This document shows, piece by piece, positions 4,355 through 23,769 of a stretch of DNA of 64,000 bases (its first letter is position 1; each line of letters opens with the position of its first letter). Source of the stretch: an uncultured Gemmatimonadales bacterium (GTDB taxonomy: Bacteria; Gemmatimonadota; Gemmatimonadetes; Gemmatimonadales; Gemmatimonadaceae). Location of the stretch: contig OY969695.1 of NCBI GenBank assembly GCA_963701965.1, positions 1,664,001 through 1,728,000 on the forward strand, written 5' to 3'. The notes under the pieces are model-generated. The model did not search any database. It worked only from the letters and a program-made list of their open reading frames with translations, and was not told the DNA's origin. The translations under genes were made by a program, and so were the position numbers.

Positions 4355-4479
4355 ATGTATACGGTACCAAGCGGGACAACAGGGCACCAGGCCGGATCCG
4401 GCGTGCGTTATTGCTTCGCCAAGTCCCCCAACATTGGTCGACGTCAACCGGGGGACGCGGAATTTCCGCGAGGACGGTT

Positions 4480-5148
4480 CCCTTGCCTTATCGACCGGCG
4501 ATTGCACATCGAGTCGTGCGGAATGAAACGGCGGACACCTTGTTGACGGTCGCTCCCGCCGTGCACCCGCTTTTGCCATTCTTGCTCGTGTTGGTCGGCT
4601 CGACCGGCCGGCGGCTGGGCAGCGTTCTAGGCCTACGCTGGACTGACGTCGACCTTGAGCGGCGTACGATCGTTTGGCGTGCGGCGCTCGACAAAGGACG
4701 GAAGACCTGGCAGTCACCGCTTCCAGAACTGGCGGCGACCGCGCTGCGCGAACGGGCGCGGGCGGTGGGATGGTACAGTAACGCGTACATCTTCCCTGCT
4801 CCGAAGAAGCCCGCCGTGTCGGCGACCCGACATCTCGCGGCGGTTTGGCTCCGGCGAGCGTACCGGATCGCCAAGATCGAAAGAGAACTGGGCGGGCTAT
4901 GGCACCCGTTTCGGCGGAAGTGGGCGACGGAGCGAAAGCACTATCCGGTGACGGACGTCGCGGCCGCAGGCGGTTGGCGCGACATCAACACGCTGCTCAC
5001 CTGCTATCAGCATCCCGACAGTGACACGATGCGCGCCGTCGTGGAGCTGAGCCCACTCGGGAGAAACGTACACACGAACGTACACACCTCAGCGATAAAC
5101 GAACTGGCGCCGCACGAGGAAGCTCGCACGGCGCCAGTAGTTAGTTAG
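4480..5148 (+). pseudogene. Tyrosine integrase, catalytic C-terminal part only (left element)
   Basis: TGRRLGSV..LRWTDVD, LWHPFRRKWATERKH, AGGW, CYQH motifs; stop abuts the tRNA-Pro att copy; no intact N-terminus. Confidence 0.85.
5102..5140. terminator. GC-rich hairpin next to the att copy
   Basis: actggcgccg...cggcgccagt inverted repeat; same position relative to att as the terminator at 22882. Confidence 0.5.
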
Positions 5149-5193
5149 GTCGGGGCGACTGGATTTGAACCAGCGACCTCCTGCTCCCGAAGC
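5149..5193 (-). repeat. att site: 45-bp duplicate of the 3' part of tRNA-Pro
   Basis: gtcggggcgactggatttgaaccagcgacctcctgctcccgaagc is identical to 22932..22976. Confidence 0.97.
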
Positions 5194-5376
5194 TGGCTCG
5201 GAAGGTCACGAGTTTTGACAATTTGACGGACGCTAGAGGGAAACCGGGCATCGGTGCCGGGTTTTCGCGTTGTTCTCGAAGCAGTCTGCCGCATGAAACG
5301 GGTCACGGAACGGGTCAGCACGATTTTGGGCGATAGCAGTTAACACACAATGCTGACGGGAGTCATCTCGATCGTC

Positions 5377-5421
5377 GTTGCAGTTCTACAAGTTGTAGAG
5401 CTACAAGTTGTGACTCTACAA
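5377..5421. repeat. Three tandem 15-bp units, each a TTGTAG-NN-CTACAA-like dyad
   Basis: gttgcagttctacaa / gttgtagagctacaa / gttgtgactctacaa. Confidence 0.85.
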
Positions 5422-5879
5422 CTACCAAGCGCTCAGATCGACTCCCCTGACGCCAATACTCGGCGCTCGCCTGCCATCGCACGCTGGCGTCGAAGGTGGT
5501 CGATCGGCGTGACTTGTCCTACCGCCGTCGCTGTCAGGTTGGATAAGAAACAACAGCGAGTGTGTGATGGGCTCGAGGCGTCAGTGTCGCCAACCCCCGA
5601 GCGAAGCACCTCGATGTCCTTCGCGCTGCGGCCACGAAGCGGTGTGTTCCGCACAATGGCATACCGACGTACTCGATCGGGCTCATCGCATTAGTGCCAG
5701 TGCCGCGAAGCGTGAGTGGGCTCGTAGTGTCAAGGGCCATTTTTCTGACACAATAGGGCAGAATCATGACATCGAGCACTCACCGCTCCCACGATGCGCC
5801 CGGATACTCTGGCGACTTCCTCAAAGACAACCAACATTGCTGGGAAGTTGGCAACATGGAAAAACACTGGAGAACGTGA

Positions 5880-6512
5880 TTGGCGAACAGCGACAAGCCG
5901 AAAACAGCTGCGATTGCGGCAGGCGCGGGCGTCGGTTCGTTCGTCGGGTTGCTCGTCGGCCTTTCGTCGGCTCCCGTGGTGGCTGCCATTGTTGGCGCAC
6001 TGGCTGCCGGACTACTCGCTCTGTTGGGCCTGCGTGAATCAACGACGAAACGACCGGCGACCTGTCGCGCCCTCAAGTGCTTCGCGTCGCGGGGTTCGGT
6101 GTCGCTGCGTCCTTCACGCTGATCGTTGGACTGGCGCTCCGCGCGCGCGACGTACTATCACCGTCGCCCAAACAGCAGGTCGCAGAGTGGCACAATGCAG
6201 GTTACACCGACAGCGTTGCTCGCGTGTTGGTCGCCTATCGCGACTTCGGTATCCTGCCGACGAATGTGACAGTCAGCGAGAAGGTACTTCCATCCCCGCG
6301 CACCAGGGACGGTCCTGTTCGCTGAAGCGCTCGATCAGTGCGGCTCACTGGACCTGCATCGGATTCCGGATGATGGGGAGCTACTCAAAGCGTACCTCAT
6401 CGCACACGGATCGTGGAAGCCCATCGGCCAGGCCGTGGCCGCGGTCCCGCAACCTCAGCGACGCCAACTACTCCTCTCCGTTTGGCAACTCATCTGCGCG
6501 CCGGTCTCGTGA
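5880..6512 (+). CDS. Hypothetical membrane protein (two frameshifts)
   Basis: Hydrophobic GxxxG helices in 5880..6122 and 6077..6325; a third frame continues GTVLFAEALDQC...WQLICAPVS* to 6512. Confidence 0.55.
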
Positions 6513-6514
6513 TC

Positions 6515-7891
6515 GTGAGCAAATCGTTGGGGACATGTGCCGGCTTTCTCTACCCCTGCGTACTGAGTCTCTCGGCCGTTACGTCCCTGGCCCAGGGACC
6601 TTCGAACGCGACACTCGACCATGCGAGACACGCGGTCGTGCGAGTCGAAGTTGACGGCTGCGCCGCCGCTTCCCACTACGGAACAGGATTCTACGAGCAA
6701 TCGACCCACAATGTGGTACCGCGTATCATGTGATTGCGGGCTGCAAGGACATTGTCGTCGTGTCCGCTATGACCGGTGCACATCGCGTGGCGAGCGTGAC
6801 GCATGTGCTGCGGAAAGCTGACCTCGCGCTCCTGGCCGTCGACAATGTACCCGCGAGTACCACAGAGCTGGCTATCGGTACACCAACATATAACGCACAA
6901 GACCAGTTGATGGCGCTGGGCTATCCGTTACAGGCACCAGAGGTTGGAAGTGCCAAGCTCACGTACCGATTTGGCGCTCACACGTTACGGGGTATCCTCT
7001 CGACAACGCTGCAGAACCAAGTGCGGTCGGCAGGTGTGCCCGACTTGGATCTGCCGCTCGTCAGCCTCGATGGACACCTCCTGCCAGGCTTGTCGGGGGC
7101 ACCGATTCTGGATGCGCGTGGCGATGTCGTCGCGATCGGCGATGGTGGTGTCGACGAAGGTGCCGCCAGCATAAGCTTCGCGATCCCATCAGATCACATA
7201 CAGGCGCTTGCGGCCTCATCCGAAGCACTGAACGCGCCAGAGACGACGAGACTCACCGTTCTGTTCGCGGCTGACTTCGATTCCAAGGTCGGAACGAGCA
7301 CCCAATGCGGGCAAACGTCGTTCATACGCGTGCGCCAACGCTCGCTCGCCGATATGGCGCAGACAACAGACGATCCGTTTGGGCTCCAACAGCTACTGAC
7401 TGTCTTTCACATCGCCCCTCAGCAAGATATCCGGTTCGACGTATACCAAGACACGGCGTCGACCGCCACGTTCGTCTTGCCCGCAGGCGCCCAACTGCGC
7501 TACGCAAACGGATTCTGCAGCGCGCAATTGACTCCGGATATTGAGATACGACCTGCTCACGCAGACCGGCGGGCAATGGTTCATCGATCCCACGGTTACG
7601 TACCATGCAGCCGTTCAGCGACCGGATGGTTTGATTGCGATGAGAAAGGCCTGGTATCAGGTCAGTCCAATCACCGGCATATCGCCCCCTGAACGGTACG
7701 TCTTCGAAGTAGTCGCCCAGAAGCGCAATACGCTCCTCGGCTCATCCCTCACAAACGTGAACAACAGAGCGTTCGGTCAGTGTCGGCTTCAACCAATCGC
7801 TCCGGGCTGCGCGCAGCTCCTTCAACAAGACCAAAGCGCTTGGGAGAACGGAGTGCTCGCCATTCACCTGACGACATTTCCATCCAACTAG
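6515..7891 (+). CDS. Secreted trypsin-like serine protease (frameshifts near 6717 and 7545)
   Basis: GTGF, TAYHV (His), ADLALL (Asp), GLSGAP (Ser) triad; signal-peptide-like N-terminus. Confidence 0.8.
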
Positions 7892-8032
7892 CCGACCATT
7901 CCATTTCGTTCACAGCGCCATTTGCGGCGCGCATTCTACGGGACGAAGAGGATCGCGGGAGGTCGTGTCGGGCGGTTGCTGGCGCACGGCAATGACGACA
8001 TACCCGACTGATACTCGTTCGACAGGTAAACA

Positions 8033-8735
8033 ATGGAACCGCCCGACGAGCCATTGGACCGCGAGAGATTCCCTATACTCCGCGTCCTACCCGAGGCCGT
8101 CCTACGCGTACTGCGAAGACATTACTACGCGGGCGTGAAGGAAGCCGAAACAGGATTCCAGTTTCACGTGGCGGATGAAGATGCGGTGACCGGCGCTCTG
8201 GGAGAGCGCTTGATCGAGCCGCCAACGTGGATAACGGTGGATGGTCAGGAGTACATGTGGCGCACGTCCTACCATAAGCTGCGCGGCCGCGGCGCCAATG
8301 CCCCGGAGAAGCGCCTTGGCGCCAATGGTATCTTCCAGCTGGAAGTGCTGGGTCTGACCGGACGATTCAATGTGCGCAAGGGATTGCTCTTCCAGTCAAA
8401 AATCGGCTGGCAGGGCAGCGACTCGCAGTTGCTGGGGCAGGCCCGTACTCTGCTGGAGCTGTCGAGATCCGCAATCGTTATCGACTACGCCCCGGATGGG
8501 TACAAGGCGGTGGCGGCGACTGATGTTGTTGCAGCCAATGGAAACAGTAGACGAGTACGTCCCAGAGCAGCCCGGCAACTGGCAGAAGTGCTGGGGGATG
8601 GGCTCGTGAGCTGCACGAGGCGAAAATGGCCTCTATTGGGACGCGGAGCAGGAGCGGCTTGTTGTCGGCGGCGAGCGTGTCTCCGAGCTCGTGCCCGCAA
8701 GCGTCACAAACACGAGAATTGAGCGGATCCGGTAA
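8033..8735 (+). CDS. PD-(D/E)xK restriction-endonuclease-like protein (frameshift near 8620)
   Basis: DED.VTG...EKRLGANG.F.....RKGLLFQSK pattern resembles E..D..(Q/E)xK nucleases. Confidence 0.5.
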
Positions 8736-8973
8736 GCACTTGGAGGCGGGAACAAGGATCCCAGGCCTTCTTAAGGATCGAGTGGCCAACGACGCGCGAA
8801 CGACGCCCCCTCTCATAGTCGACGCGAACAAGTACTCCCATGCCCGGACGACGGATCAGCATGTTCGCTTTAGGTTTCGGTACAGCAGGCGTTCATCGCC
8901 GCTAGCTGTTGCCGTCTTGCCGTGAGTATTGTCGCCAGCGACTTCCAACAACGTCAGTATGCGTGGCGAACGA

Positions 8974-10179
8974 ATGTCTTCGAATAGCGAGCTGTTGGAC
9001 TTAGCAGATTCGGCCTTCTGTGACAGGCTAAGGTTTGCGGTCCAACGATCTAGATCGTCGGGCGCCAACACGCTCACCGCGGTCTGTCGATCAGCGCGCG
9101 GTGCGTTTCCTACTTTGGTTGTTGAGACGCTTCGCGAGTTGGAGCCGCGCGCACCGGCGCTTCTTCAGCGCACGTGGGCCGACGACGAACCCGGGCATGT
9201 CGACTCAGCGCCACCCGCAATGCCGGAGCCTCACCCAATCGACTACGAGTGGCGGTATACGAGGTCGACCGCTGACGCGGTTGCTGCGTACGCGCAAGCT
9301 CTTCCAGGAGACATCGCTTGCGTCGGTACCCCGACAGTGTTCTGGCGTTTGCTACACTCTGGGATCAATGCGACGCTTTTTGACCGCAACGCAGACGTTT
9401 TGCAGTCGGTCGGATCTGCGCCGAAACACAACATCGTGCAGTGCGATCTGCTGGCATCATCGTGGGCGCCTCCCACAGTTGGCGCCTTCGGCGTGGTGAT
9501 TCTCGATCCACCATGGTACAGCGATCACACCCGCCTTTGGATCGCAAGAGCATTGCATTTGGTTCGACCGGGCGGGCGCCTGCTGGTCACATTGTTCCCC
9601 GAGCTCGTACGTCCGTCCGCGCACACCGAACGGCTTGAGCTGTTGGAATTGATGGAGTCCATCGGGAGAGTTAGTACACTGCCGTTTCCGGCCCTGTACG
9701 CGACCCCACGTTTCGAGAAGGAAACTCTAGACGCGCTAGGTTTTGCCGGTCTCGGGCAGTGGCGTTCTGGCGATCTGCTGGAAGTCGCCATCAATGCCAA
9801 CCCGCCAGCTATTGGTGCCGGCACGCCCTCAGAATCCACCTGGGATCGCGTTCAGCTCGGTACCCAGGTCGTCGCGGTTCGACGAGACGTGCCGAAATTG
9901 GGGCCGAGCGATTCAAAAGCTCAGCCGCTCAAAGTATCGCCGGTAATGCGAGATGGGTCCTACCTCTTGAAATCCGTCAGCGCAAGGGACGCGACGCGGT
10001 GTGACATCTACCTTTGGACCTCGCGCAATCGTGCGTTACGCGCCGACAATGGCGCGCCGACTCTGCTGCCATTCCTCCAGTGCTTGGAACGTGGCGAATC
10101 ACCTCGGACAGCTATCGACGCCGCGCCCCACGGCGACCGCAGAGCCCTCGAAATCGTCGTCGCCGTGATCGGCTGGTAG
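8974..10179 (+). CDS. SAM-dependent amino-methyltransferase-like protein (DPPW motif)
   Basis: IACVGTPTVF motif I-like, LFDRN, VILDPPWY motif IV, LVRPGGRLLV. Confidence 0.7.
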   Translation: MSSNSELLDLADSAFCDRLRFAVQRSRSSGANTLTAVCRSARGAFPTLVVETLRELEPRAPALLQRTWADDEPGHVDSAPPAMPEPHPIDYEWRYTRSTADAVAAYAQALPGDIACVGTPTVFWRLLHSGINATLFDRNADVLQSVGSAPKHNIVQCDLLASSWAPPTVGAFGVVILDPPWYSDHTRLWIARALHLVRPGGRLLVTLFPELVRPSAHTERLELLELMESIGRVSTLPFPALYATPRFEKETLDALGFAGLGQWRSGDLLEVAINANPPAIGAGTPSESTWDRVQLGTQVVAVRRDVPKLGPSDSKAQPLKVSPVMRDGSYLLKSVSARDATRCDIYLWTSRNRALRADNGAPTLLPFLQCLERGESPRTAIDAAPHGDRRALEIVVAVIGW

Positions 10180-10207
10180 CGCAATTGACACCGAGCTCAT
10201 CCTGTAT

Positions 10208-10243
10208 TTGACATTGGTCCGACACAACGATATTGTTGTGTCG
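10208..10243 (+). promoter_or_regulatory. sigma70-type promoter overlapped by a 24-bp palindromic operator
   Basis: TTGACA-17bp-TATTGT; CGACACAAC-gatatt-GTTGTGTCG (10220..10243) covers the -10 box and ends at the GTG start. Confidence 0.8.
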
Positions 10244-10680
10244 TGATTCCGCCTTTTGGCGTGAGCGGGAATCTTCCGCCCGGTATTCATGTTGCGACGT
10301 GGGACGAGGTGACAACTCGGCTGGGTGCTACTTCCCAGCGCCGACGGCTTGTCGCCGGTCTGCGACTGGGATTAGCCCAACTTCGACTCGCTGGCTGCGC
10401 GCGGGCTTACATAGACGGAAGTTTTGCGTCGAGTGAACCGACTCCGGGCGATTTCGACGTCTGCTACGAAACGCGCGGTATGGATCCGCAGTTTCTCGAT
10501 CCCGTGTTCTTCGACCAACGATCCAACCGCGCCGCGCAGAAGGCCAAGTACGGCGGCGAATTCTTCCCGAGTTTATTCCCGGCTGCGGTGGGGTACACGT
10601 TTCTTCAATTCTTCCAGGTGGATAAGCGCACCGGCGACGCCAAAGGCATCGTGGCCATAGATCCGAGGGACGTGCCATGA
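10243..10680 (+). CDS. DUF6932 family, nucleotidyltransferase-like
   Basis: G.LPPGIH.ATW.E, YIDGSF.S....PGDFDV (GS..DxD), FFQ.DK.TG..KGIV.IDP. Confidence 0.85.
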   Translation: MIPPFGVSGNLPPGIHVATWDEVTTRLGATSQRRRLVAGLRLGLAQLRLAGCARAYIDGSFASSEPTPGDFDVCYETRGMDPQFLDPVFFDQRSNRAAQKAKYGGEFFPSLFPAAVGYTFLQFFQVDKRTGDAKGIVAIDPRDVP

Positions 10681-12196
10681 TCAAGAATGAGCGACAGTAT
10701 CGAATTGCTACGGCCGAAGCCGCGCGTTTCAGCGAGGCTCTAGCCTCACGTCCTAACGCGCCTCCGGAGAACTCGGACATCGATCCACGCTTTTGGGACG
10801 CGGAAACGGAAGCCATGCACGCGCAGCTAGAGGAGCTACGCGCAGAGCTTTCAGCGTACGATGCCCTGCAGAGCGGAACTCACCGACTCTTCGACGTGCG
10901 TGGTTGGCAAGACGTGCCGCGCGCACTCGTGCAAGGTCGCATCGCTATGGGGCTGACCCAGAAGGATCTTGCAGAGCGCCTTGAACTTCCCGAACAGACG
11001 ATTCAACGGTACGAAGCGACCGAGTATGCGGCTGCCAGTTTGTGGCGACCCGTGATATCGCGACAGCGCTAGGTCTCGAACTGTCCGGTTTCACTATCGC
11101 GCCTGATGCGGAGCCAACGCCATCACGCTTTTTCGAGCATCTCAAGGAAATCGGACTTGATAGACGTATCGTCTCCGAGAATCTCCTCCCACCGGCGCTC
11201 GCATCAGCTATGCTCGCACCAGCCAAGGCTAGGACCAAGATATATGGCGCAGTAATGCAAGTCGCTGGTCTCGTAGAGCGTATTTTCGGTATTCCTCCTT
11301 CGGTGTTATTCGGCAACGAGCCTCTAACAGCATTTGTGGTCCCAGCGACTGCGGCCAGATTCAAACGACCTAAGGTCCGAACAAAGGCGAACGTCGATCG
11401 CCAAGCAATCACCGACGGTTACACGTTTTTTGTACACTATCTCGCGTTGCTAGTACTGGAGACAACGAGCCATTTACCGCGCGAACCGGTTCCAGAGTCG
11501 CCTCAAGAATGGCGCAGTCGGATTCTGAGGCAATTTGGCAGCTTGGAATTCGAGCATGTCGTACAGTTCTTTTGGAGCGTCGGAATTCCAATCCTTCCGC
11601 TGAGGGACAGCGGGATTTTTCATGGAGCTTGCTAGCGTATCGGCGGGCACGAAGTCATCGTGCTAAAGCAACGCACGCTTTCGGAGGATCGATGGACGCT
11701 GGATGTGCTCCACGAGGGTGGCCATATTGTCCAAGAGCCCCTTAGCGAATCGTTTCAGATTCTCGAGGACGAAACTCCCTGGTTTGATGATCCGAGAGAA
11801 CAGAACGCTACACGCTTTGCCAGCGAGATCTTACTGGACGGGAAAGCGGATGCTATGGCAGAGCGCGCGGTCAATTTAGCGAATAACAATGTTCGTTTTC
11901 TCGAGCGCGCCGTGCGAAGAATTGCGGACGAAGCCAGCGTACCGCTCGGTGTGCTGGCGAACTATCTAGCCTATCGGATTGCCGCGGATACACGGGATGC
12001 TTCCGAGCCGATTAACTGGTGGCCAAGTGCGGCACGTCTGCAACGTCAACGGAATGATCCATGGAAGATTGCACGCGACGCGCTTCTTGAGCATGCAGAT
12101 TTTGCTAGACTGAATCCAATTGATCGAGACCTGCTTGTTCGGGCTCTCATGGACCCTACTGTAGAACCCGCGGCGAAGGGAGGAACCAACACATGA
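10677..12196 (+). CDS. XRE HTH fused to ImmA/IrrE Zn-metallopeptidase; frameshift near 11050 and in-frame TAG at 11633
   Basis: MIKNERQY..., GLTQKDLAERL...IQRYEATEY HTH; FHGAC*RIGG..VIVLKQ; DVLHEGGH (HExxH); REQNATRFA..ILL. Confidence 0.8.
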
Positions 12197-12927
12197 CCGA
12201 TGCGCCAAATAAGCTAAAGATCTCGTGCGGCACGGTCGATTGTGAGAATGGACTTCACTGTTATCTACGCACGAAGCGTGAGGCTCAGAAAGCAAGCCGA
12301 CAAGTTCGGTCAACGAGAGCGATCAACGGGACAAACGCGGCTGAAATGAATAGCAGTTCAGAGGTGGCATCGCCCAAGACCGCTGGATTTGATACTGGCC
12401 TGTCAATTGGAGATGTGGTTCAAAAGAGAGCGACATCACGACAATGTAAGGCCTGCGGCGTGAATCTTGTGGACTGGGAGCGCATCGGACAACGCGATAT
12501 CCGCAATGTGAAGCACACGTTTCAAGCCATGCGTACCGAGTGGATTCGGCACTATTTCTGGCACGTATCCATCGACAGCGTGGCAGTAGACTACGCATTC
12601 CGCAAAGGGAAACAGCAATTACGCGAACGCCTAGCAGGTCGTATTCGAAGTGCAATTGGAAAGTCAGCAGATCAACTCTTCCGCAATGGTGCGCAGACGC
12701 CGCTAGGCACAACCCCGAGGGCAGAGAATATCATGTACTTTGCGCAACATGCGACGGCGAGCTGCTGCCGCAAATGCGTTGAAGAATGGCACTCGATACC
12801 CCGGAATCGAGTCTTGTCAAACGAGGACATCGAATATCTCACAGACTTGGGTATGTGCTACATACTGGAGCGACTACCAACACTGCCGGAGGACGCAGCT
12901 GCAGTTTCCACTTCGGACGGCGAGTGA
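12193..12927 (+). CDS. DUF4186 family protein with Cys-rich N-terminal extension
   Basis: G.QTP...FAQHATASCCRKCVEEWHSIP motif; ATGA coupling to upstream gene. Confidence 0.85.
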   Translation: MTDAPNKLKISCGTVDCENGLHCYLRTKREAQKASRQVRSTRAINGTNAAEMNSSSEVASPKTAGFDTGLSIGDVVQKRATSRQCKACGVNLVDWERIGQRDIRNVKHTFQAMRTEWIRHYFWHVSIDSVAVDYAFRKGKQQLRERLAGRIRSAIGKSADQLFRNGAQTPLGTTPRAENIMYFAQHATASCCRKCVEEWHSIPRNRVLSNEDIEYLTDLGMCYILERLPTLPEDAAAVSTSDGE

Positions 12928-13033
12928 CAGCGAATCGCTGGAGTGAGGCTAGCTCGTTTGTGCGCTCATACCCGATGCTTGTCATGCGGCAGTTGATTGA
13001 ACACGCTGACTCAAAGATTGTCGGAAGGACTAG

Positions 13034-14002
13034 ATGAGCCCACGCGGAGTGATCAAGACAGATTCGTATTCCGCTGAACTTCGAGCACGAGCTATCGACC
13101 TAACTCAAAAGCGCGTGCTCATCGCTGATTTGCGCGGGAGCCAACAAGCAAAGGATCTAACCGTTCCGCCAAACTGCAGTGGCTACGGCAGGATCCGTCA
13201 TTTTTCTAGAAGGACGATACCTGACTGGCCACCGAACTCATTGCCGATCGACCCGGCTTGTGCGGCACTTGGCTTGTCCCGCTCGGATGCTCTCAATGCC
13301 CAAGTGTTTCAGAATGCGGCCTGCAATTGGCGTTGCTGGTACTGCTATGTTCCGTACGAACTCCTGTCCGCCGATTCGAAGCGGGGCGCCTGGCTTTCGG
13401 CCGATGATATATTGGACCTGTATTTAAAGGAGCCTGAACAGGCTCGAGTCATCGATTTGAGTGGCGGCCAGCCCGACCTGGTGCCCGAGTGGTTGCAATG
13501 GATGGTGGAAGCGGTTGAATCGCGTGGGCTTGAGAAGCAAGTCTATCTGTGGTCGGACGACAATCTCAGCAACGACTACTACTGGCAGTATTTGACGGAA
13601 CACGCTAGGGAAGCAATTTCCTCCGCGCGCAACTATGGCCGCGTATGCTGCTTCAAGGGATTTGATGATCGGTCATTCTCATTCAACACTCAGGCGGCAT
13701 CAGACTTGTTTAGTCGACAATTCGAACTGTTCGGCCGCCTCATGTCCGAAGGGATTGATCTATACGCTTATATGACGTTCACGACGCCTTATTCGAATGG
13801 CATCGCAGACGCCATGACGCGTTTCGTCGATCGCCTGCAGGAACTTAGCCCCAACCTTCCCTTGCGCGCCGTGCCGTTAGAGATTCGTCCGTACACGCCA
13901 ATGCAAGCTCGCATTGGCCCGCAGGAGGAACGTGCACTCGATCTTCAGCGAGTCGCGTGCGAAGCTTGGCTGCGGGAGATCGACCGACGTTTTCTCGGCT
14001 AG
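13034..14002 (+). CDS. Radical SAM protein
   Basis: CNWRCWYC (CxxxCxxC) and IDLSGGQP; GGAAGGA RBS. Confidence 0.9.
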   Translation: MSPRGVIKTDSYSAELRARAIDLTQKRVLIADLRGSQQAKDLTVPPNCSGYGRIRHFSRRTIPDWPPNSLPIDPACAALGLSRSDALNAQVFQNAACNWRCWYCYVPYELLSADSKRGAWLSADDILDLYLKEPEQARVIDLSGGQPDLVPEWLQWMVEAVESRGLEKQVYLWSDDNLSNDYYWQYLTEHAREAISSARNYGRVCCFKGFDDRSFSFNTQAASDLFSRQFELFGRLMSEGIDLYAYMTFTTPYSNGIADAMTRFVDRLQELSPNLPLRAVPLEIRPYTPMQARIGPQEERALDLQRVACEAWLREIDRRFLG

Positions 14003-14053
14003 CGAGCGCAATGTACCGATCAATGCCGTCGCGTTGCGACCGACCAGGATCCC

Positions 14054-14593
14054 GTGATCGACTTCGGACTGCTACAAGAGGCGGTTCGAGCAGATTCATA
14101 TTGGTCGGCGTACCTACGGAGCTCGGGCGAGCGTCAGGCAATTCGGATGCACCTTGCGATCTTCGTTGAGCCTTTTCTTGGCTTTGTTCTCGATGGCAGC
14201 AAGACGATCGAATCGAGATTTAGCGTCAACGCGACCGCCCCATACGGCCGCGTCTCCCGCGGTGACGTGGTTCTTCTCAAGCGATCTGGTGGGCCAATTT
14301 GTGGCATATGTCAGGCTGCCAATGTCTGGTACTATGAGCTCGACAAACGTGCCTGGCGTGAGATTCGTCGTCGATTTGCGACAGCCTTGCGACTCAATGC
14401 GCCTGACCTCAAGGATCGTTGCAATCGCGCCAGCTACGCCACTCTTATTCGCCTAAAGCACGTCTCGCCGACGCTGCCTATTGGCGTTGCGAAACGCGAT
14501 AGACGCGGGTGGGTCGTTCTGACAGAATCGAACCATCTGCTCAACCTGTTCGAATATTCGGAATGTCGGCAGGCTATTCGATACTCTCGTTGA
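14054..14593 (+). CDS. ASCH domain protein (PUA-like fold)
   Basis: HLAIFVEPFL..VLDGSKTIESRFS (GxKxxExR), GDVVLLK.SGGPI.G. Confidence 0.85.
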   Translation: MIDFGLLQEAVRADSYWSAYLRSSGERQAIRMHLAIFVEPFLGFVLDGSKTIESRFSVNATAPYGRVSRGDVVLLKRSGGPICGICQAANVWYYELDKRAWREIRRRFATALRLNAPDLKDRCNRASYATLIRLKHVSPTLPIGVAKRDRRGWVVLTESNHLLNLFEYSECRQAIRYSR

Positions 14594-14707
14594 TTGGAGC
14601 AAGAGTGGTGAGCGTTCTCGCGCCACGTCGTGCATTCTTGTAGCTAGAAGATAGCCGTCGAGGAATACCCGGTTTCAGTTCACATCTTCGCTAGGTAATC
14701 GTCTCAG

Positions 14708-15289
14708 ATGAGGTTGACTGTTATTGGGATCGCGGGGCATGCCAAGAGTGGCAAGAGCACGTTGGCTCAGGCGTTATCGGATCGACTGGCGCTTCCACGC
14801 GTTAGCTTCGGGACCGAAATACGAAAGATTGCTGGAGAACGCGGCGAGCCCGTCACGGACCCAGCACGCGCGACCGAAAGAGCGGTGCTCATGCGTCACG
14901 GAGAACATCTCGTTGCGCATGAGACGGAAATGCTCTGCCGTCGGGTTATCGCCCAAGCAAACTGGAGAGAAAGAGGGGGCGTCATCATAGACGGCATACG
15001 ACATGTCGTCGTCGTAGAGACTCTTCGTCGAATTCTATCGCCGGTGTCGCTGTTCTTGATTCTGGTTAACACCTCCGCGAACGAACGCGAGCAGCGTTTC
15101 GTCGACGCCGGGCTGGGTCCTTTGACACGCGCCGTCATGGACGCTCATTCAACTGAGCGCGAAATTCCAGACGAGATCGCGTTACTCGCGGATCAAGTAG
15201 TCGACGGAGCAGTTGACGCCAGCGTCACTGTGGACGCGGTAGTCGCAGCTATCGAAGCACGGTCCTTGTCGCGCGGCGTGCCTGATTGA
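14708..15289 (+). CDS. P-loop nucleotide/nucleoside monophosphate kinase-like protein
   Basis: GIAGHAKSGKST Walker A, VSFG.EIR, VIIDGIRH. Confidence 0.8.
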   Translation: MRLTVIGIAGHAKSGKSTLAQALSDRLALPRVSFGTEIRKIAGERGEPVTDPARATERAVLMRHGEHLVAHETEMLCRRVIAQANWRERGGVIIDGIRHVVVVETLRRILSPVSLFLILVNTSANEREQRFVDAGLGPLTRAVMDAHSTEREIPDEIALLADQVVDGAVDASVTVDAVVAAIEARSLSRGVPD

Positions 15290-15313
15290 GCAAACCTACC
15301 CTTTCGAACGCAT

Positions 15314-16309
15314 CTAGTACGGTATACTGAAGTCCTCGTGCACAACGATCGAGGCGAATTCGTGCACGCCGTTTGGTCTCACCCAGTAGTGTAGGTGGAA
15401 CTCGTAATCAATGTCGCGACGCCACGCGCGTGCACCGTCAGTTTGGCGAACTAGGTCCGGGTCGTTGCCGCCGTTGCCGGTCCGGAGTCAATGTGGCTTC
15501 CCAGTGTTCAACTGCAATAGTGTATCAGCGCTCGCGTTCAGCAGTCGCTCGATCTTGGCAGTCTCATGACAGAAACCAAGGGCCTGTGCGGACTGCAGAA
15601 ATTCGGACCCTAGAGCACAAATAACATTGATCGGCCAGATAAGTGCACCGCCCTGCATGGCCTGGCGTTGAGCAGTTCGCATCTCGATCGCAGCTCGCTC
15701 GCAACCTGACAGTTGCCAAAGCGCGGAAGCACTCTCCAGACCAATGAAGCCGGCCAAATTCTCAACCAGCGCGGCGTCGATACGATACTCCGTCTCTTCT
15801 GGCTCATTCGTTTCCACGCGCTGGATAAGAGCTGAGCCCATCACAGTGACCGCAAATGTTGTGTTTGCGGTACCTCGCGTCCACACAATCGGGTCCCTAC
15901 CTCCAGCTTGCTCCTGTCGGAACGCCGCCAACCCCAGGAGGTGGTGATGGTGTTCAATGAACAATTGCGGTCGATTGACAAGATGCGAGTCGGGATTGCA
16001 TGCGGATGTTACGCATACCAATTCGACGACTTGTGCGACGTCTTCGGCGGTGGTGCCGCCTAGCAAGGAGTAGACCAGGGTGACGATATCGTGGCGCGCA
16101 ATCTCGCGAGAATGCGGGCCTCCAACCCAGACCGGATAACTCTGTGTTTTTGCGAGGAGTTCGCTGGCATCAGCGGCGGAAACGATTCTCACCCATCGCT
16201 GCTGCTGCAATCGCCGCAACTCCAACAGTTGTGATACGTATTCGTCTCTTGCGGCGGTCGTGTCGGAATCGAGCGCGACAGCATACGCGTCAAGATACAC
16301 ATCAGGCAT
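15314..16309 (-). CDS. Hypothetical protein with C-terminal RelE-like domain, in-frame TGA at 15488
   Basis: Frame continues past KPH* as LRTGNGGNDP...AWRRDIDYEFHLHYW...FASIVVHEDFSIPY*; start overlaps the ATPase stop. Confidence 0.6.
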
Positions 16310-18185
16310 TCTGATTATTACCCGGCCGACTCCGCCGCTTCCGAATCCCCGCTTCAAGAATCGACGCTGCTGAGTTCTCCGTTTCATCGAAAAACCCTAC
16401 CGGCCACTCTTCAAGCACTCCATACTCGTTGACGATTACACGGCGATATTGTGATTGCCTGTCGATCTGTTCGACAAAGTAAAGTGCGATCGAATCCGCC
16501 ATGGTCGGCTCGCTCGTTGCAGCGGCCCAATAGCGAAGGCGATTGACCAAGTGCTCGCTGTGTGTCTCTACCACACATTGCTTGCCGAGTCGAGCCATGG
16601 CAACGAAGAAGTCTGCCAAACGTGTCTGTGCCTTCGGATTCAGATGCACCTCTGGTTGTTCGAATAACAGTGTAGCACCGGACGGCGCCACGAGCGCCAT
16701 CACTAGAACCGGAAGAACTTGACTCACACCGATGCCTACCTGTGTAAGGTCAAACTCCGATCGAAGTTCATAACCAAGTCGGCCTATACTCACACTAATT
16801 GCTTCACTCCCTACGCCGAGAAATGCAAGCCATTCGTTGACTGCTTGCAGAAGATTGACCTCCGTCTGACCTGCCAGGTTGCGGTCAGCTACGAATCTCT
16901 CTGGAGGCAAATGGGGCACCTTAGCTTCACTGTAAAGATCGAGCACGGCTGCCGTGTGCTCGCCACTCACTCCGACATCCCACGATTCGGACCCGCCGAC
17001 AAGCGGGTAAACGGTGCGGGGCGCGGTCCGGATGGGTCCGAGATAACGAACAGAGGTGACGAAGAAATCACGTATCGCTAACGACGAGTCTCGTATGACA
17101 GGTGGAAGCTGCCGGTGCTCAGCGGCCTTCAGACCAAATTGTGTGACACGAACTGCGCGTAGCAGATCGTCCCTTCGGTCTGCTAGCGCTTTTGCGAGCT
17201 GTCGCCGATAGTCCGGCCGTAGTGTGCGATAACTGGCAACGAATTGTGCGGTGGAAAACTCCAGTTGCTCGAGCAGCGCGGCAGCGGACTGCGCGTCCGG
17301 CGTTCCTATTGATTTGAGAACTTGCAGCAGTATGGCCCTGACTTCGGCATTTAGGACTTGGTCAGCTTCAGTCGCAAGCGTGTCTCCCGGCGGATCGTCC
17401 AACTCTTGGACGGACTCAAGTAGCGCACTAACAAACGAATTAGATGCGCGCTCTGCGGCATCATATACGACTGTGATTCTTCTTGGGAGGAAATGAGTGA
17501 GAGATGCTCCAACCGGCATATCGCTACCGGATCGTCTCCGCGACCGATCAGCAAAATCGACAACCTCGTAGTCGAAGGACTCAAGGACTCGAGACGGGAC
17601 GCGACCTTCGATACCGAGACCCAAATCAACTAGTCGATTAACCCGCGGCGACCCTAGCCGCCGCATGTGGATTCCGGCACCAGGTGGCCGTTCGCTCATG
17701 GATCGAAGGTCGGCGTTCGTCCTGCTAGCACGACTATCTCCGATGTCGACCCACGACTCCAGCCGCGACTCGTGAAGATCGGGATGAAGCTGGGGCAGTC
17801 GTCGACCATCTGTAGATGGGGCGATAAACGCGTAGGAACATCGGACGAGCGCTTGCCGCGATGTATCGCTTGGCCAGAACCTCCCAGCGAATGATGCGAG
17901 TCGCTCTGATGAAACCCTCAGCGAGAACCCGATCTCCACGATTGTGCGCTCTGCGTACCTACAGCGCACGTCTTCAAATGTGCCCAACCGCACGAGAGGA
18001 CCATTAAGAATAACCGGCATATTGTTGAGAGGACTGCGCAGCGTTTGCGCGGTCATCAGGATGCTCTGGATGACGGTGCTCTTTCCCGCGCTATTAGGAC
18101 CGGTCAGTATCGTTAGCGGCGCCAGCGTCAGCAATGTATTGGCTTGTACGGATTTGAAGCAGTGCAATCGCCATTCAATGAGCAT
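16302..18185 (-). CDS. ABC/AAA-type ATPase with C-terminal DUF3696
   Basis: GPNSAGKS, VGIGVSQVLP, FEQPEVHLNP, VETHSEH, WPVGFFDE. Confidence 0.9.
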   Translation of the reverse strand: MLIEWRLHCFKSVQANTLLTLAPLTILTGPNSAGKSTVIQSILMTAQTLRSPLNNMPVILNGPLVRLGTFEDVRCRYAERTIVEIGFSLRVSSERLASFAGRFWPSDTSRQALVRCSYAFIAPSTDGRRLPQLHPDLHESRLESWVDIGDSRASRTNADLRSMSERPPGAGIHMRRLGSPRVNRLVDLGLGIEGRVPSRVLESFDYEVVDFADRSRRRSGSDMPVGASLTHFLPRRITVVYDAAERASNSFVSALLESVQELDDPPGDTLATEADQVLNAEVRAILLQVLKSIGTPDAQSAAALLEQLEFSTAQFVASYRTLRPDYRRQLAKALADRRDDLLRAVRVTQFGLKAAEHRQLPPVIRDSSLAIRDFFVTSVRYLGPIRTAPRTVYPLVGGSESWDVGVSGEHTAAVLDLYSEAKVPHLPPERFVADRNLAGQTEVNLLQAVNEWLAFLGVGSEAISVSIGRLGYELRSEFDLTQVGIGVSQVLPVLVMALVAPSGATLLFEQPEVHLNPKAQTRLADFFVAMARLGKQCVVETHSEHLVNRLRYWAAATSEPTMADSIALYFVEQIDRQSQYRRVIVNEYGVLEEWPVGFFDETENSAASILEAGIRKRRSRPGNNQNA

Positions 18186-18531
18186 GTGCCTCCTCGAGCC
18201 GAACGTGAGCGTCACATTGGTGTGCTTCACCATTACAACCTAAGTTCGCGACCTAACGGCCCCACAGTTCTCGGACTCGGACTCGGCCAGCCGGCATCAG
18301 TCCCGCGACCGAAATCGAAGAGGCCGAAAGCTCGGACACTGTCTTCAGAATCCGCAGACGCGAACTGGTCGACAAGCACTCCGACATCGCGCGGCAAATC
18401 GTGCAGATGCACTCGATATCACCTATCACCGGCACCACGGCCACCGAGTAGGTGCGGTCGAGTTCGGGATTGCCGACCTGCATTGTCACGAAGGCATATG
18501 TATGCTCGTCAATTGCCTCCCAGTTCCGAAC

Positions 18532-19297
18532 CTATGTCACATCACCACCACGACGCGCGCTGCGGCGCAGCTGCTCGAGCTCGGCCCGCAACGGCGCCCA
18601 ATATGCGCGGTCAAGCTCCCGCTCCATTGCCTCCTCGGCGGTCAGGGCCTCCTCCAGCCGCACCTTGTCACGCGCAGTGGCGGCGTCCAACAGCGGACGC
18701 TCGGCAACTATTTCGCGCGCAGCGGTTCGGAACCGGTGCACCGCCTCGACGAGTAACACCGGCGTGCGCAGCTCGCGCAACCAGAATCGCGCCTCGGTGG
18801 GCGCAGGACGCGATGTTCCGCCGAGGTAGCTGACTTCCATGAGCCGGCGAATCATCGGCCAGTCCTTGTCCCGCTGAGTCTTCTTAGACACGACGAGATC
18901 GGACAAACCAATCACATTGACGGTGAGACCATTCTGGTAGCGCGCGGGTCTGACGTCGCGACACAAGCGCGCGAAATGGGTCGACCCCGCGGAGGCGCGC
19001 CATGACGTCAATGCGCATGCCCGCGACGTCCGGGCGTTCACACTCAAAATGAATCGCATGACCGCGCTCCAGGTATTGGAGCTCGAATGGTGGCACCGCA
19101 ACGACTCTCGCCTGAAGGTCGGCGAGGGCCGCCTTCAATCGCGAGAGATTGTCAGCGTCTGCGAGGACGGCGAGATCGGTGTCCCGGCTGAACTCCGCTG
19201 CCCCGTACAGAATGCACGCCTGACCGCCGATGAGCAGACTGTCGACGGAGAATGCCCGGATCGAAGAAAGGACTCTGTGTATCGGGCTCGGGCCCAA
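18532..19297 (-). CDS. Minimal nucleotidyltransferase-like protein (frameshift near 18940)
   Basis: LLIGGQACILYG..EFSRDTD, IDVM, DLVVSKKTQRDKDW. Confidence 0.7.
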
Positions 19298-19463
19298 GCG
19301 TGCCTCCCAGGGCGAGATAGTCGACCCACATCTGAGAGCTGGCCGTCCAACGCTCCTCTGGCGTCATACGGTACCAAGCTGCCCATTCGGGCTCGCAGAG
19401 GTCTTCGATTTCGACGCGGCGTCGCGAAACGGCCGCTCTAGACCGACGATCTGAGGGGGTCAC
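19152..19463 (-). CDS. Small partner protein overlapping the nucleotidyltransferase gene
   Basis: EWAAWYRMTPEERW..S..MW..YLALGGTLGPEPD.QSPFF; ends uncertain. Confidence 0.5.
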   Translation of the reverse strand: MTPSDRRSRAAVSRRRVEIEDLCEPEWAAWYRMTPEERWTASSQMWVDYLALGGTLGPEPDTQSPFFDPGILRRQSAHRRSGVHSVRGSGVQPGHRSRRPRRR

Positions 19464-19686
19464 AAGATCCTCTCGACTCGATACGGGACGACGACTGTGT
19501 CACTTTGAAACTAACACCTAAAAAGCACGAGATAAATGGTTTTGCGCCGGCCACAATCAACAACCTGACGAGCGACGGCTTGCGCAACGACCATGACGGG
19601 GTCCCGGCGTCGAGCGTCATAGGTGTATCGAGGCCTTCGTCTGCCCGAGTAAGCGTTGCATGATCTTTCTTGCCTGGGCCTGAAGC

Positions 19687-20400
19687 TCACTGATAGGGGT
19701 CGAAGCGTCGCAGGACCGCAATGTACGGCTCAAGTAGACTCGCGCGAAACTCGGCCATGACGGACGCAACGTTGTTGCCGCATTGCCATTGTGTGGGCGT
19801 CAACCCCGTGAGCCGACGGACGATCCGCAGGAGCGCTTGTGGCGACGACGCATTGAGCGCGTTGGCGATCGCCGTCGCGCTTTGGGTCGTCGACTCCGCG
19901 TGGTACGCAACTCGGGCCAACAGCGCGATTTCGAGATAGCGTTTCGGGGATGGCAGGCCGGCGCGGTTGAATCGCGACATTAGAGAGCCACGAGGCACGC
20001 CACCTAGCGTCGCGACGTCTGCTACCAGCTTGCATTGCCCGCCAAAGACCGCGGCGATGAACCGAATCCAACCGGCTGTCGTGGTGCCGAGCACATCGTT
20101 GACCAGCACTACGGCGTGCCGAGCCAACGAGCTCGGAAGCCGCTCCGGATCCAGTGCTTCCCGTAGCGACGCCCACCCCAATCGACCAACGCGCAGATCC
20201 ACAACCGGCTCGGCGCCAGCGGCGCCAAGTATGGCCGCTCGGCGGACAGCGGCGTCGCCGACTTCCTCGCTCACGATCCCAAGGACCGGAATGTGAGGGA
20301 ACGCGCGCCGCACGCGAACCAGCTGATCCACTGCCGCCGTGTCGATCCGAGCGACCGAGACAATGCCGGCGGCCGCATTGACTGGGCGCCCCGATCTCCA
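19687..20400 (-). CDS. AraC-type HTH regulator, N-terminus degenerate
   Basis: SLMSRFNRAGLPSPKRYL, IANALNASSPQALLRIVRRLTGLTPTQW. Confidence 0.7.
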   Translation of the reverse strand, partial: WRSGRPVNAAAGIVSVARIDTAAVDQLVRVRRAFPHIPVLGIVSEEVGDAAVRRAAILGAAGAEPVVDLRVGRLGWASLREALDPERLPSSLARHAVVLVNDVLGTTTAGWIRFIAAVFGGQCKLVADVATLGGVPRGSLMSRFNRAGLPSPKRYLEIALLARVAYHAESTTQSATAIANALNASSPQALLRIVRRLTGLTPTQWQCGNNVASVMAEFRASLLEPYIAVLRRFDPYQ

Positions 20401-20419
20401 GCCTTTGGCGGTGACGCTC

Positions 20420-21237: not shown

Positions 21238-21626
21238 ACGGTCTTCCTGAGTTGGCGGGGGACTGGCGCCGGCGCGCAGAGCTGCTGCGGACACACGGCG
21301 CGGAGGAAGCCGCGAAGACTTGCGATGCGCTGGCAGCCGAACTCGAAGCGTCGATCAGTGAGCGCGAAAATGAATTGCTCACTCTGGCACAAGCGCAGGT
21401 CGTTTGCGGCTACTCGCGCGATCACCTGGCGCGCCTGATTCGTAACGGTGCGATTCCGAACGCCGGCCGCCGGCACGCGCCAAGGGTACGACGTCAGGAC
21501 CTGCCGATGCGTCCGGCGAAGAAGAACATTGCTCGGCAGACACACGCCGCATATGATCCCGTTGCCGATGCCCGGTCGCTCTCTGCGGCCCGTCTCCACA
21601 AGGGAGGCGTGCATGGCAAGACGTAG
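21234..21626 (+). CDS. Excisionase-like HTH protein
   Basis: LLTLAQAQVVCGYSRDHLARLIRNGAIPN...PRVRRQDLP, directly upstream of the integrase. Confidence 0.7.
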   Translation: MNGLPELAGDWRRRAELLRTHGAEEAAKTCDALAAELEASISERENELLTLAQAQVVCGYSRDHLARLIRNGAIPNAGRRHAPRVRRQDLPMRPAKKNIARQTHAAYDPVADARSLSAARLHKGGVHGKT

Positions 21627-22883
21627 CGGCTGGTACAAAGTGGACGGACGATGGGCGCGAGTGCTCGGCGAGCGAGGGTGCCGCGTCCGGCTGTTTGAGA
21701 TGACGAAGGGTGGTCCTTTTTATCGGACTGTGTGGGTCTCGGGTCGCGGGAAGGACCGGAAGTGCCTACACACTTCGGACAAAGCCAGAGCCGAGCGCCT
21801 GGGACTCTCGTTACTCACGTCCCTGCTACAGGGACTGGCTCCAGCACCGGAAACGCCGCTGACACTGGGCGATCTCTGGAATCGGTATCGCACCGAGTGC
21901 CGGACATTCCACGCCACGAGGCCACGGTGGCAGTTGGAGTGCGGGGACGCATGAAGTGCTTGATCGCGTACTTCGGTGCCGGTTGCCAGGTGCGCGAACT
22001 GTCCGCCGACGATGTGGCAGCCTACACAGCCACCCGGCGCGCCGGCGGGATCGTGGTCGACGAGGACTACACGACTGGCGCGGTACGTCCGCGAAGCGTC
22101 GATGTCGATCTTACGTTGCTCAATCGCATCTTGAACTGGGCAGTTTCGGTACGAGTGAATGGCGTTCGACTGCTAGACACCAACCCGCTCCGCGGCGTTC
22201 AGCGCGTGCGGGAGCACAAATCGCGAAGACCGTTGGCGACCTGGGATCGCTTCCTGGTCACACGCAAGGCACTCCGCGAATTGGCGGACGAAGCGATTGA
22301 TGACGCCGAACACCTGCGGTTCGTGAAGATCGAGTTCGCGCTGGTACTCGCCGAAGCTACGGGACGCCGGCTCGGTTCGATCCGCCAGCTCGAATGGTCG
22401 GACATAGATCTGGAGGGCGGCGTGATTCGTTGGCGCGCCGAGGCGGACAAGCAGGACGCTGAGTGCCAGGTGCCGATCCCGGCGGCACTCGGCGAGGAGA
22501 TTCGCGCATTCCGGAAGGAGCTCGCGACGGTCGGCGGGCTATGCTTCCCCTCCGAGCAAGACATCACGGTGGCGATGAGCCGGTATCAGTTCGCCAAATG
22601 GCTCCGGCGCGCGGAGAAGAAGGCGAGGCTGCCGAAACTCGCCGGCGGCCTTTGGCACCCATATCGCCGAAAGTGGGCGACCGAACGCAAGCACCTCGCA
22701 ATCGCCGACGTCGCGGCCGCCGGCGGGTGGCGTGATAAGGCGACGTTGCTCAACTACACCCAACCAACCGATGACGCCATGCTCGCGGTCATGAGCGAGC
22801 CCACCAAGCTCCGAGACGTGGCATTAGCCGGCCAAACGAAGCCACGGAACGGGTCACCAAATGGGTCACGGCCCGAGATGTAA
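21613..22883 (+). CDS. Tyrosine recombinase/integrase (frameshift near 21930)
   Basis: TGRRLGSI..LEWSDID, LWHPYRRKWATERKH, AGGW, NYTQ; adjacent to tRNA. Confidence 0.92.
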
Positions 22884-22920: not shown

Positions 22921-22932
22921 CGGTTAGATGAG

Positions 22933-23006
22933 TCGGGGCGACTGGATTTGAACCAGCGACCTCCTGCTCCCGAAGCAGGCGCGCTACCGGGCTACGCTAC
23001 GCCCCG
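22933..23006 (-). tRNA. tRNA-Pro(CGG), CCA not encoded
   Basis: CGGGGCGTAGCGTAGCCCGGTAGCGCGCCTGCTTCGGGAGCAGGAGGTCGCTGGTTCAAATCCAGTCGCCCCGA folds as a cloverleaf with anticodon CGG. Confidence 0.97.
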
Positions 23007-23717: not shown

Positions 23718-23769
23718 CTTGGCCCGGGGCCGGCCAACGAGCCGGCCCCGATCCGCGTACTCTTCAGGT

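Follow-up and report, generated by a model that had tools for sequence, protein, structure and literature searches.

What is the function of seven co-oriented genes that lie between positions 8974 and 15289 of a 64,000-nucleotide stretch of contig OY969695.1 (hereafter the window, meaning the whole stretch) from an uncultured Gemmatimonadales bacterium? The genes encode, in this order, a DPPW-type S-adenosylmethionine (SAM)-dependent methyltransferase-like protein (MTase), a DUF6932 protein, a fusion of an XRE helix-turn-helix (HTH) domain with an ImmA/IrrE zinc peptidase (XRE-ImmA), a long form of DUF4186, a radical SAM enzyme (rSAM) of an uncharacterised family, a PUA-like ASCH protein and a P-loop kinase. 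As outlined below, this gene set (the cassette) is a real, conserved and apparently undescribed system: the genes are mobile and inherited jointly, an operator is present, the first gene can be swapped and the catalytic motifs are intact. Our reading of it is tentative and one that we hold to be possible: a mobile, self-repressed anti-phage cassette whose enzymes would produce a modified nucleotide under the control of a predicted toxin-antitoxin sensor.

A genome scan anchored on the rSAM confirmed 164 loci, and all neighbourhood counts given below out of 80 refer to the best 80 of these. The rSAM family has 3422 homologues at E ≤ 1e-10 and is well bounded, with 547 representatives at E ≤ 1e-3. 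According to the record titles, the hosts belong to the Chloroflexota, Cyanobacteria, Planctomycetota, Acidobacteriota, Actinomycetota, Verrucomicrobiota, Pseudomonadota, Myxococcota, Bacillota, Bacteroidota, Nitrospirota, Armatimonadota and Latescibacterota, plus one archaeal metagenome-assembled genome. With the proteins of the window and of a plasmid as queries, XRE-ImmA and DUF4186 were each found beside the rSAM in 76/80 loci, the kinase in 73/80, ASCH in 70/80, the MTase in 68/80 and DUF6932 in 63/80; profiles built from the loci reproduced these values, with the kinase at 75/80. The full order DUF6932, XRE-ImmA, DUF4186, rSAM, MTase, ASCH, kinase was kept in 49/80 loci. Reciprocally, metagenomes were scanned with an alignment of the MTase (best 80 of 381 loci, counted only where enough flank was available), unveiling the rSAM in 57/58, ASCH in 54/55, the kinase in 53/55, DUF4186 and XRE each in 32/33 and DUF6932 in 29/33 loci. 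These loci were counted without dereplication, and related Dehalococcoidia and cyanobacteria are among them. The neighbourhood that an earlier sequence-only reading of this DNA had proposed to score around rSAM homologues is evidently kept, with the partners at 63–76 of 80 loci in many phyla. The rSAM itself is 49–57% identical across phyla. A fixed seven-gene set with one operator over a dozen phyla is a mark of strong joint selection.

Two smaller versions occur among the loci. Four loci (L008, L066, L067, L073) consist of DUF6932, XRE, DUF4186, rSAM and kinase without MTase or ASCH, and four others (L024, L069, L078, L084) of rSAM, MTase, ASCH and kinase without DUF6932, XRE-ImmA and DUF4186. 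Overall, the MTase is absent in 12/80 and ASCH in 10/80 loci; the kinase is absent in five, of which three are contig ends, one is broken by an insertion sequence and one (L028) is a real gap. These gene-loss patterns indicate that rSAM and kinase form a near-constant core to which MTase and ASCH are usual additions, and that DUF4186 is tied to the regulator side, because it is lost together with XRE-ImmA. The modules are thus separated by natural five-gene and four-gene versions, and intact copies exist in cultured strains, among them Nostoc sp. NIES-3756 (on a plasmid), Tolypothrix PCC 7712, Rhizobium sp. WYJ-E13 and Flavobacterium sp. RHBU_24, with a five-gene version in Paenibacillus sp. 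HW567. Further permutations of the gene order occur in L142, L146 and L154. Fusions appear to tie the parts together as well: MTase-ASCH in L018, L062 and L084, and, as single cases that could be sequence errors, ASCH-kinase (L009), DUF4186-rSAM (L044), ASCH-DUF4186 (L061) and a nucleotidyltransferase-rSAM fusion (P0130) with a weak Polbeta match, whose nucleotidyltransferase domain is not detectably DUF6932. The sole match to a longer fusion, P0121, joins an rSAM fragment to a DNA-methylase-like protein and was taken as a chimera. Additional enzymes that probably act on nucleotides or sugars enter the operon, which would likewise suit a nucleotide-directed function: a TylF methyltransferase was found in four loci, standing in L019 and L152 between ASCH and the kinase, dCTP-deaminase-like genes adjoin eight loci, and PhyH accessory genes also occur with the cassette. 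L061:3067-10990 is a rearranged and extended cassette with the ASCH-DUF4186 fusion, TylF, the kinase and a deoxynucleoside kinase, and with DUF4160 and WYL genes nearby.

How is the cassette controlled? In the window a sigma70-type promoter, TTGACA-17-TATTGT, lies at 10208..10236 on the forward strand and leaves almost no leader before the DUF6932 start. It is the only promoter-like site in 8700-15600; shuffled sequences give 2.8 on average, so that the call is weak on its own, and TTGAC near the −35 position recurs upstream in many loci. Over the −10 box, ending one base before the start codon, lies a palindromic operator, ACACAA-N8-TTGTGT (10222..10241), the predicted binding site of the XRE protein. 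An inverted repeat with arms of at least 6 bp was found upstream of DUF6932 in 66/76 non-redundant sequences versus 13% of shuffles, and the operator consensus (at most one mismatch) within 150 nt of DUF6932 in 99/104 loci with room for it. As the motif was derived from the same loci, the controls carry the weight: only 1/112 matches in 2.29 Mb lies away from DUF6932, the operator occurs in none of 25 listed loci without DUF6932, and the 5.1-Mb genome of the window holds one exact copy, at 10222-10241. The conserved operator supports the inducible control that had been suggested from the sequence alone.

The genes behind the operator resemble a type II toxin-antitoxin pair, being coupled and having a predicted autoregulatory operator over their promoter. 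DUF6932 (10243..10680, forward strand, Pfam E 6e-32) is a predicted minimal nucleotidyltransferase and likely the toxin of the front module; its residues G59 and S60 (52/52), D70 (51/52), D72 (52/52) and E106 (50/52) are conserved and may correspond to a pol-beta-like hG[GS]...DxD pattern with a third acid, and it has no sequence match in the PDB. XRE-ImmA (10677..12196, forward strand, HTH_3 E 4e-6, Peptidase_M78 E 1e-5), a protein of about 485 residues, is the predicted antitoxin, repressor and sensor, and its HExxH motif (H336, E337, H340) is invariant in 57 intact homologues; the window copy is broken. The ATGA overlaps that were said to couple the first three genes from 10243 are real, at 10677 and 12193. 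In 13 loci without DUF6932 a gene of about 80–100 codons precedes the repressor instead, and 11 of these 13 match DUF4160, which we take to be the HicA-like toxin of a DUF4160/DUF2442 pair. In the DUF4160-type loci the repressor keeps its ImmA part, its N-terminus and HTH sequence differ and the operator is gone. Such a concerted change of first gene, repressor N-terminus, HTH and operator is expected if type II toxin-antitoxin heads are exchanged on a peptidase that they have in common, and the first slot therefore likely holds a swappable toxin, as judged from these sequences. A DUF2442 label for the variant N-terminus was set aside and is a lead only: it came from one weak match among nine, and the profile missed the DUF2442 gene of the window itself.

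Which chemistry could such a sensor gate? The rSAM (13034..14057, forward strand, E 4e-7; the open reading frame (ORF) as assembled stops at 14002) carries the cluster cysteines C97/C101/C104 (CxxxCxxC) and G144/G145 (GGQ) in 57/57 members, and in the family alignment C206, a fourth, non-cluster cysteine, and K208 are invariant. Among 60 full-length proteins including distant members, R53 is kept in 58, Q93 in 58, C206 in 55, K208 in 57, Q229 in 58 and R278 in 51; the arginines may bind phosphate. The structural model (predicted local distance difference test, pLDDT, 95.8) matches the partial TIM barrel of radical SAM folds, with PFL-activase as the closest (Z 17.4, root-mean-square deviation 3.0 over 225 residues, 11% identity), followed by QueE (Z 13.2), spore photoproduct lyase (SPL, 12.7), lysine aminomutase (12.3) and viperin (12.2). 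When MTase, DUF6932 and rSAM were searched by sequence against the PDB, the cluster motif was the only significant match. According to the accessible part of PMC5682303, a non-cluster cysteine returns a hydrogen atom in SPL and in the epimerase YydG, and by analogy with SPL C206 likely does the same.

The likeness to SPL bears on another explanation, which we regard as rather unlikely, namely an inducible clean-up in which a lyase-type rSAM and an ASCH amidohydrolase strip damaged or phage-made bases or nucleotides and the kinase recycles them, starving modified phages or repairing damage. SPL, third in the fold search, shares the fourth invariant cysteine (accessible part of PMC5682303), and homologues of ASCH are deacylases, as stated in the available portion of the EOLA1 preprint (bioRxiv 10.64898/2026.08.01.741249). 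Genes for an anti-phage-type dGTPase (beside 13/164 loci) and dCTP-deaminase-like genes (adjoining 8/164) recur as neighbours; the dGTPase link, however, comes from a single cyanobacterial lineage, and the presence of a methyltransferase in 68/80 loci points to synthesis rather than removal.

The MTase of the window starts at 8929 (TTG) or 8974 (ATG) and ends at 10179 on the forward strand; it has a DPPWY motif and matches PF10237 weakly (E 4e-4); 28/52 members of its family match PF10237. D184, P186, W187 and Y188 are invariant in 52 members and fit the [DN]PP[YFW] motif IV of N6-adenine/N4-cytosine methyltransferases; the nearest atlas clusters are PF10237 and then BpsA. ASCH (14054..14593, forward strand) is recognised with E 0.027 in the window and with E 6e-6 in an intact homologue. 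Its triad K50/E53/R55 is kept in 50/50, 49/50 and 50/50 sequences, and His33 as well as a basic C-terminal KxDRRxW are invariant. The triad corresponds to K21/E24/R26 of EOLA1, reported as an N4-acetylcytidine deacetylase in the available portion of its preprint (bioRxiv 10.64898/2026.08.01.741249); the sequence match to EOLA1 reaches only E 0.17. The kinase (14708..15289, forward strand, AAA_18 E 1e-9) is of a nucleoside-monophosphate (NMP)-kinase-like, AdkA-like type (AAA_17/18) with an intact P-loop. The best full-length PDB matches of its profile are 3lw7/3h0k, the AdkA-like SSO1041 (E 1.5e-14), and an intact homologue matches the viperin-associated kinase VakA (E 1e-9).

These enzymes would also fit a marking of nucleic acid (tRNA, rRNA or DNA) in place, MTase and rSAM writing a complex base, with ASCH reading the mark, the kinase salvaging nucleotides that are released and the toxin firing if the mark is lost or foreign. 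We consider this unlikely. The absence of the MTase at 12/80 loci, including the whole genomes (of unstated completeness) behind L008, L066 and L067, in which it was not found, argues against it; so do the lack of a nuclease in the cassette and the repression by an operator, which is ill-suited to a constitutive self mark. The invariant DPPW motif of the MTase, the invariant basic tail of ASCH and the three MTase-ASCH fusions are in its favour. In the parts of the respective papers that are accessible, ASCH is described as fused or linked to adenine methyltransferases (PMC4738411), and ASCH and AAA_17 genes are described as accompanying (PIN)-GNAT-EVE operons (PMC7641849).

The remaining gene, long DUF4186 (12193..12927, forward strand, E 5e-19), has an extra N-terminal Cys4/His motif and HATAxCCRxC, from which zinc binding is predicted, and a conserved G-x-Q-T motif. 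Its model (pLDDT 85) gave no match in a fold search (best Z 3.7), which does not show a new fold. Stand-alone short DUF4186 genes had unrelated neighbours in 5/6 loci examined, and yneG of E. coli is such a short form, of unknown function as far as the accessible text of PMC9283627 and PMC11502571 goes. DUF4186 lies directly 5′ of the rSAM in most loci and is fused to it in one, which together with the G-x-Q-T motif raises the question whether rSAM and MTase modify proteins instead (DUF4186, XRE-ImmA or a translation factor), making the cassette a post-translationally controlled toxin-antitoxin switch. PFL-activase as the best fold, four Z units over the next, would agree with this, and PF10237 includes a lysine methyltransferase. 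We nevertheless judge the proposal to be improbable: four loci keep rSAM, MTase, ASCH and kinase without DUF4186 or XRE, kinase and ASCH point to nucleotides, and the identity to PFL-activase is 11%. No gene for a glycyl-radical enzyme was found among the recurrent neighbours of the 164 loci or the scanned flanking ORFs.

The cassette is mobile and rare. It was found on seven plasmids, six of them conjugative, and on islands. No true homologue was detected in 100 relatives (one marginal match, E 1e-3) and none in 300 sampled cyanobacteria, and among 301 genomes of its phylum long DUF4186 occurs in that of the window only. An 18.4-kb strain-specific insertion distinguishes Tolypothrix PCC 7712 and PCC 7601 and contains the cassette; PMC9679502 names the genes solely as components of this insertion. 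A phage-borne copy was sought in viral contigs and GenBank phages, and none was found. With conjugative plasmids and islands as carriers, the cassette could be addiction cargo, or could serve to secrete a small molecule, either a nucleoside or an aminopropylated compound, and in both cases would not act against phages; the TylF and PhyH accessory genes and the BpsA-like atlas matches would suit such a reading. This is very improbable, as no transporter travels along (none among the recurrent neighbour clusters of the 164 loci), and a response inside the cell agrees better with a sensor of the ImmA type and with the frequency of defence genes nearby.

Of the 562 ORFs that flank the cassettes at a distance of up to 4.5 kb, 287 were scanned, covering 39 loci. 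Clear defence-type Pfam families were found at 17/39 loci, in favour of an anti-phage role; they were restriction-modification, prokaryotic Argonaute (pAgo) with nuclease, TIR/Thoeris, Pycsar, AbiEii and SNF2 or DUF1998 helicases; many other loci are flanked by transposases, recombinases or conjugation genes. In L014, L017, L021, L023, L029 and L087 a long pAgo and a PD-(D/E)XK nuclease lie divergently upstream of DUF6932, and Tn7-like genes stand beside some pAgo-flanked cassettes. A 160-residue gene without Pfam match lies 3′ of the kinase at L013:13756-14235 and in six other loci, a possible eighth component. A further protein cluster stands beside the cassette at L018:13310-14299, L062, L065, L072 and L083, its L018 member combining a second kinase-like domain with a longer region.

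The anti-phage reading can be put as a sequence of steps. XRE-ImmA, probably with the cognate toxin, would bind the palindrome over the −10 box and hold the transcript off. Infection or DNA stress would activate the zinc peptidase and lift the repression, by analogy with IrrE- and CapP-type peptidases, and the toxin of the front slot (the DUF6932 nucleotidyltransferase or a DUF4160-type protein) would be freed as a growth-arrest backup. The rSAM would then abstract a hydrogen atom from a nucleotide, C206 likely returning one, and the kinase would phosphorylate the unusual monophosphate, which may enter the nucleoside or deoxynucleoside triphosphate pool and poison phage nucleic-acid synthesis. 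Where present, the DPPW methyltransferase may add an N-methyl group, and ASCH may read or hydrolyse the modified base, by which the host would be protected or the system reset.

Several observations weigh against these steps. PFL-activase, the closest fold of the rSAM, acts on a protein, and an assignment of the rSAM as viperin was rejected (NF038283, 21.7 bits versus a cut-off of 180). PF10237 covers a protein-lysine methyltransferase and an RNA adenine methyltransferase, and BpsA, the next atlas family of the MTase, is an aminopropyltransferase. The partner proteins, with the rSAM at 49–57% identity, stay below the diversification of many arms-race genes. The count of 17/39 loci with defence-type families has no background control; four of the 17 are related cyanobacterial pAgo loci, and no defence-type family was present among the scanned ORFs at L008, L020, L066, L074 and L078.

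Is the cassette a known system? The sequence-only reading had recognised none, and a PADLOC check of intact copies bears this out, giving weak single-protein matches to unrelated systems. No named system matching the cassette was found in PADLOC 2.0, NCBIfam and PHROGs, nor in the literature searched, of which most subscription papers were outside reach and Iyer et al. 2013 (NAR) or Fig. S1 of the EOLA1 preprint may show the neighbourhood. The accessible parts of PMC4738411, PMC10853773, PMC12707154 and bioRxiv 10.64898/2026.10.19.760177 do not mention it. The search yielded no literature on DUF6932, and that on DUF4186 does not present the operon as a system; for the rSAM, MTase, long DUF4186 and DUF6932 families no characterised close member was present in the libraries searched.

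Among the nearest themes are the viperin-kinase loci (available text of bioRxiv 10.1101/2023.09.13.557418 and 10.1101/2023.12.08.570793), in which HicA/RelE toxins flank viperin genes (the latter source, as far as accessible). Both share a core of rSAM and NMP-type kinase (kinase at 73–75/80 loci here), adjacent toxin genes, a patchy distribution and a position near defence genes. The likeness that had been proposed thus holds for the kinase, which resembles VakA, but not for the rSAM, which forms a family separate from viperin and whose PADLOC pVip match covers the cluster motif only (E 6e-6); moreover, the cassette adds MTase, ASCH, DUF4186, the ImmA repressor and the operator. The (PIN)-GNAT-EVE operons with ASCH and AAA_17 (Bell et al. 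2020, accessible part of PMC7641849, citing Iyer et al. 2013) are similar in that they lie near restriction systems and combine ASCH and an AAA_17-type kinase with a toxin domain and an enzyme that modifies, whereas the modifiers of the cassette are rSAM and DPPW MTase, and the GNAT-EVE operons are themselves predictions. No GNAT, EVE or PIN domain was found in the cassette, and no GNAT or EVE among the recurrent neighbours of the 164 loci. RosmerTA (RmrA) and CapH/CapP likewise have exchangeable toxin partners and a predicted antitoxin or sensor made of an HTH and a zinc peptidase with HExxH; however, the matches to XRE-ImmA are short and local (RmrA E 1e-8, capP E 9e-5), the PADLOC models gave no RmrT match in the cassette, and in the cassette the N-terminus of XRE-ImmA is specific to the toxin and five more genes follow. 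PFL-activase, SPL and QueE have the same single-cluster partial-barrel fold (Z 17.4, 12.7 and 13.2), and SPL the conserved extra cysteine, but the identities are 9–11% and no glycyl-radical enzyme, spl or que genes lie near the cassette. The ASCH amidohydrolases YqfB and EOLA1 share the K-x-x-E-x-R triad and differ from the cassette protein, which has the invariant His33 and the basic C-terminal motif and no acetyltransferase partner. The novelty lies in the gene set, the theme resembling viperin-kinase loci and ASCH-AAA_17 operons. A more far-reaching proposal, which we regard as doubtful, is a new immune class in which a non-viperin rSAM, an N-methyltransferase and a kinase build a previously unseen nucleotide for antiviral action or signalling, with ASCH as its eraser and an ImmA peptidase-antitoxin fusion linking its production to a swappable toxin.

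The window copy itself sits in a 17.8-kb island (5149-22976) bounded by exact 45-bp repeats, which are the 3′ part of tRNA-Pro(CGG). The left attachment (att) repeat at 5149..5193 is an exact copy of 22932-22976, the tRNA-Pro(CGG) that served as integration site spans 22932..23006 on the reverse strand, and the tyrosine integrase of the island lies at 21732..22883 on the forward strand (PF00589, E 3e-11). All seven co-oriented genes are thus located within a tRNA-integrated island, as had been read from the sequence. The G+C content is 56.5% for the cassette, 58.8% for the island and 67.1% for the host, and a profile search found each cassette gene as a single copy in this genome. The MTase gene stands upstream of the cassette promoter, its usual place elsewhere being between rSAM and ASCH, and the protein is only 26–30% identical to the MTases intervening there. 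Two breaks leave XRE-ImmA in three pieces, one being a frameshift near 11045 and the other a TAG at 11633-11635 in place of the Trp of homologues; a further frameshift, near 13990 inside a T run, affects the rSAM tail; and ASCH lacks F119/W120, present in 49/49 and 48/49 homologues. Beyond 13990 the alternative frame resembles the C-termini of homologues and ends in a TGA overlapping the GTG of ASCH, the tail not being significant against the profile. Of the short later gaps described before, the gene positions hold, whereas the 51-nt gap between rSAM and ASCH is likely an artefact of this frameshift.

Both decay and assembly error are possible causes of the breaks. In the same genome a frameshift divides rpoB (G000:C1:1454098-1458625), one of five essential genes checked, between two frames, and the RND efflux gene at 23719-26979 is frameshifted twice. 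Indel errors are hence present in the assembly, other pseudogenes called in this genome should be treated with caution, and the breaks in the cassette are possibly assembly errors, because rpoB is broken too. Three breaks within 6.3 kb exceed the rough error rate, a rate that rests on one event, and the single sequencing run found gave three short contigs, none of which spans the breaks. The window copy is atypical, being rearranged, and possibly decayed.

Other genes of the island were examined as well. Those at 15488-18233 and 8033-8722 recur in none of the related loci and are not parts of the cassette. The former comprise, on the reverse strand, an ABC/AAA_21 ATPase with DUF3696 (16302-18233; PADLOC NsnB E 1e-70, HEC-03B E 3e-45) and a paired uncharacterised gene of 299 residues (15488-16387), a Menshen-like defence cargo facing the cassette; the latter is a nuclease-like ORF of 229 residues without Pfam match. 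A gene at 18532-19463 (reverse strand), nucleotidyltransferase-like by eye, is interrupted so that it occupies two frames; a small gene lies upstream of it, the piece scanned has no Pfam match, and a trypsin-like peptidase gene at 6413-7891 is in pieces. Tandem islands at tRNA-Pro are suggested by a second integrase remnant (4249-5148), just beyond the att repeat, and by another partial copy of the tRNA-Pro repeat, which lies upstream of the window at a distance of about 2.9 kb. Elsewhere in the genome (G000:C1, about 3048000-3120000 and 4293888) a 30-bp sequence that resembles the 3′ end of a tRNA is repeated almost identically, with at least seven copies within about 72 kb; att sites or cassettes may form an array there.

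If the cassette does make a modified nucleotide, the radical chemistry involved would be new, and so, possibly, would be an antiviral nucleoside. Should it represent a new immune class, immunity by nucleotide analogues would have a second route, independent of the first, and the cassette would provide first functions for DUF4186, including YneG of E. coli, and for DUF6932.

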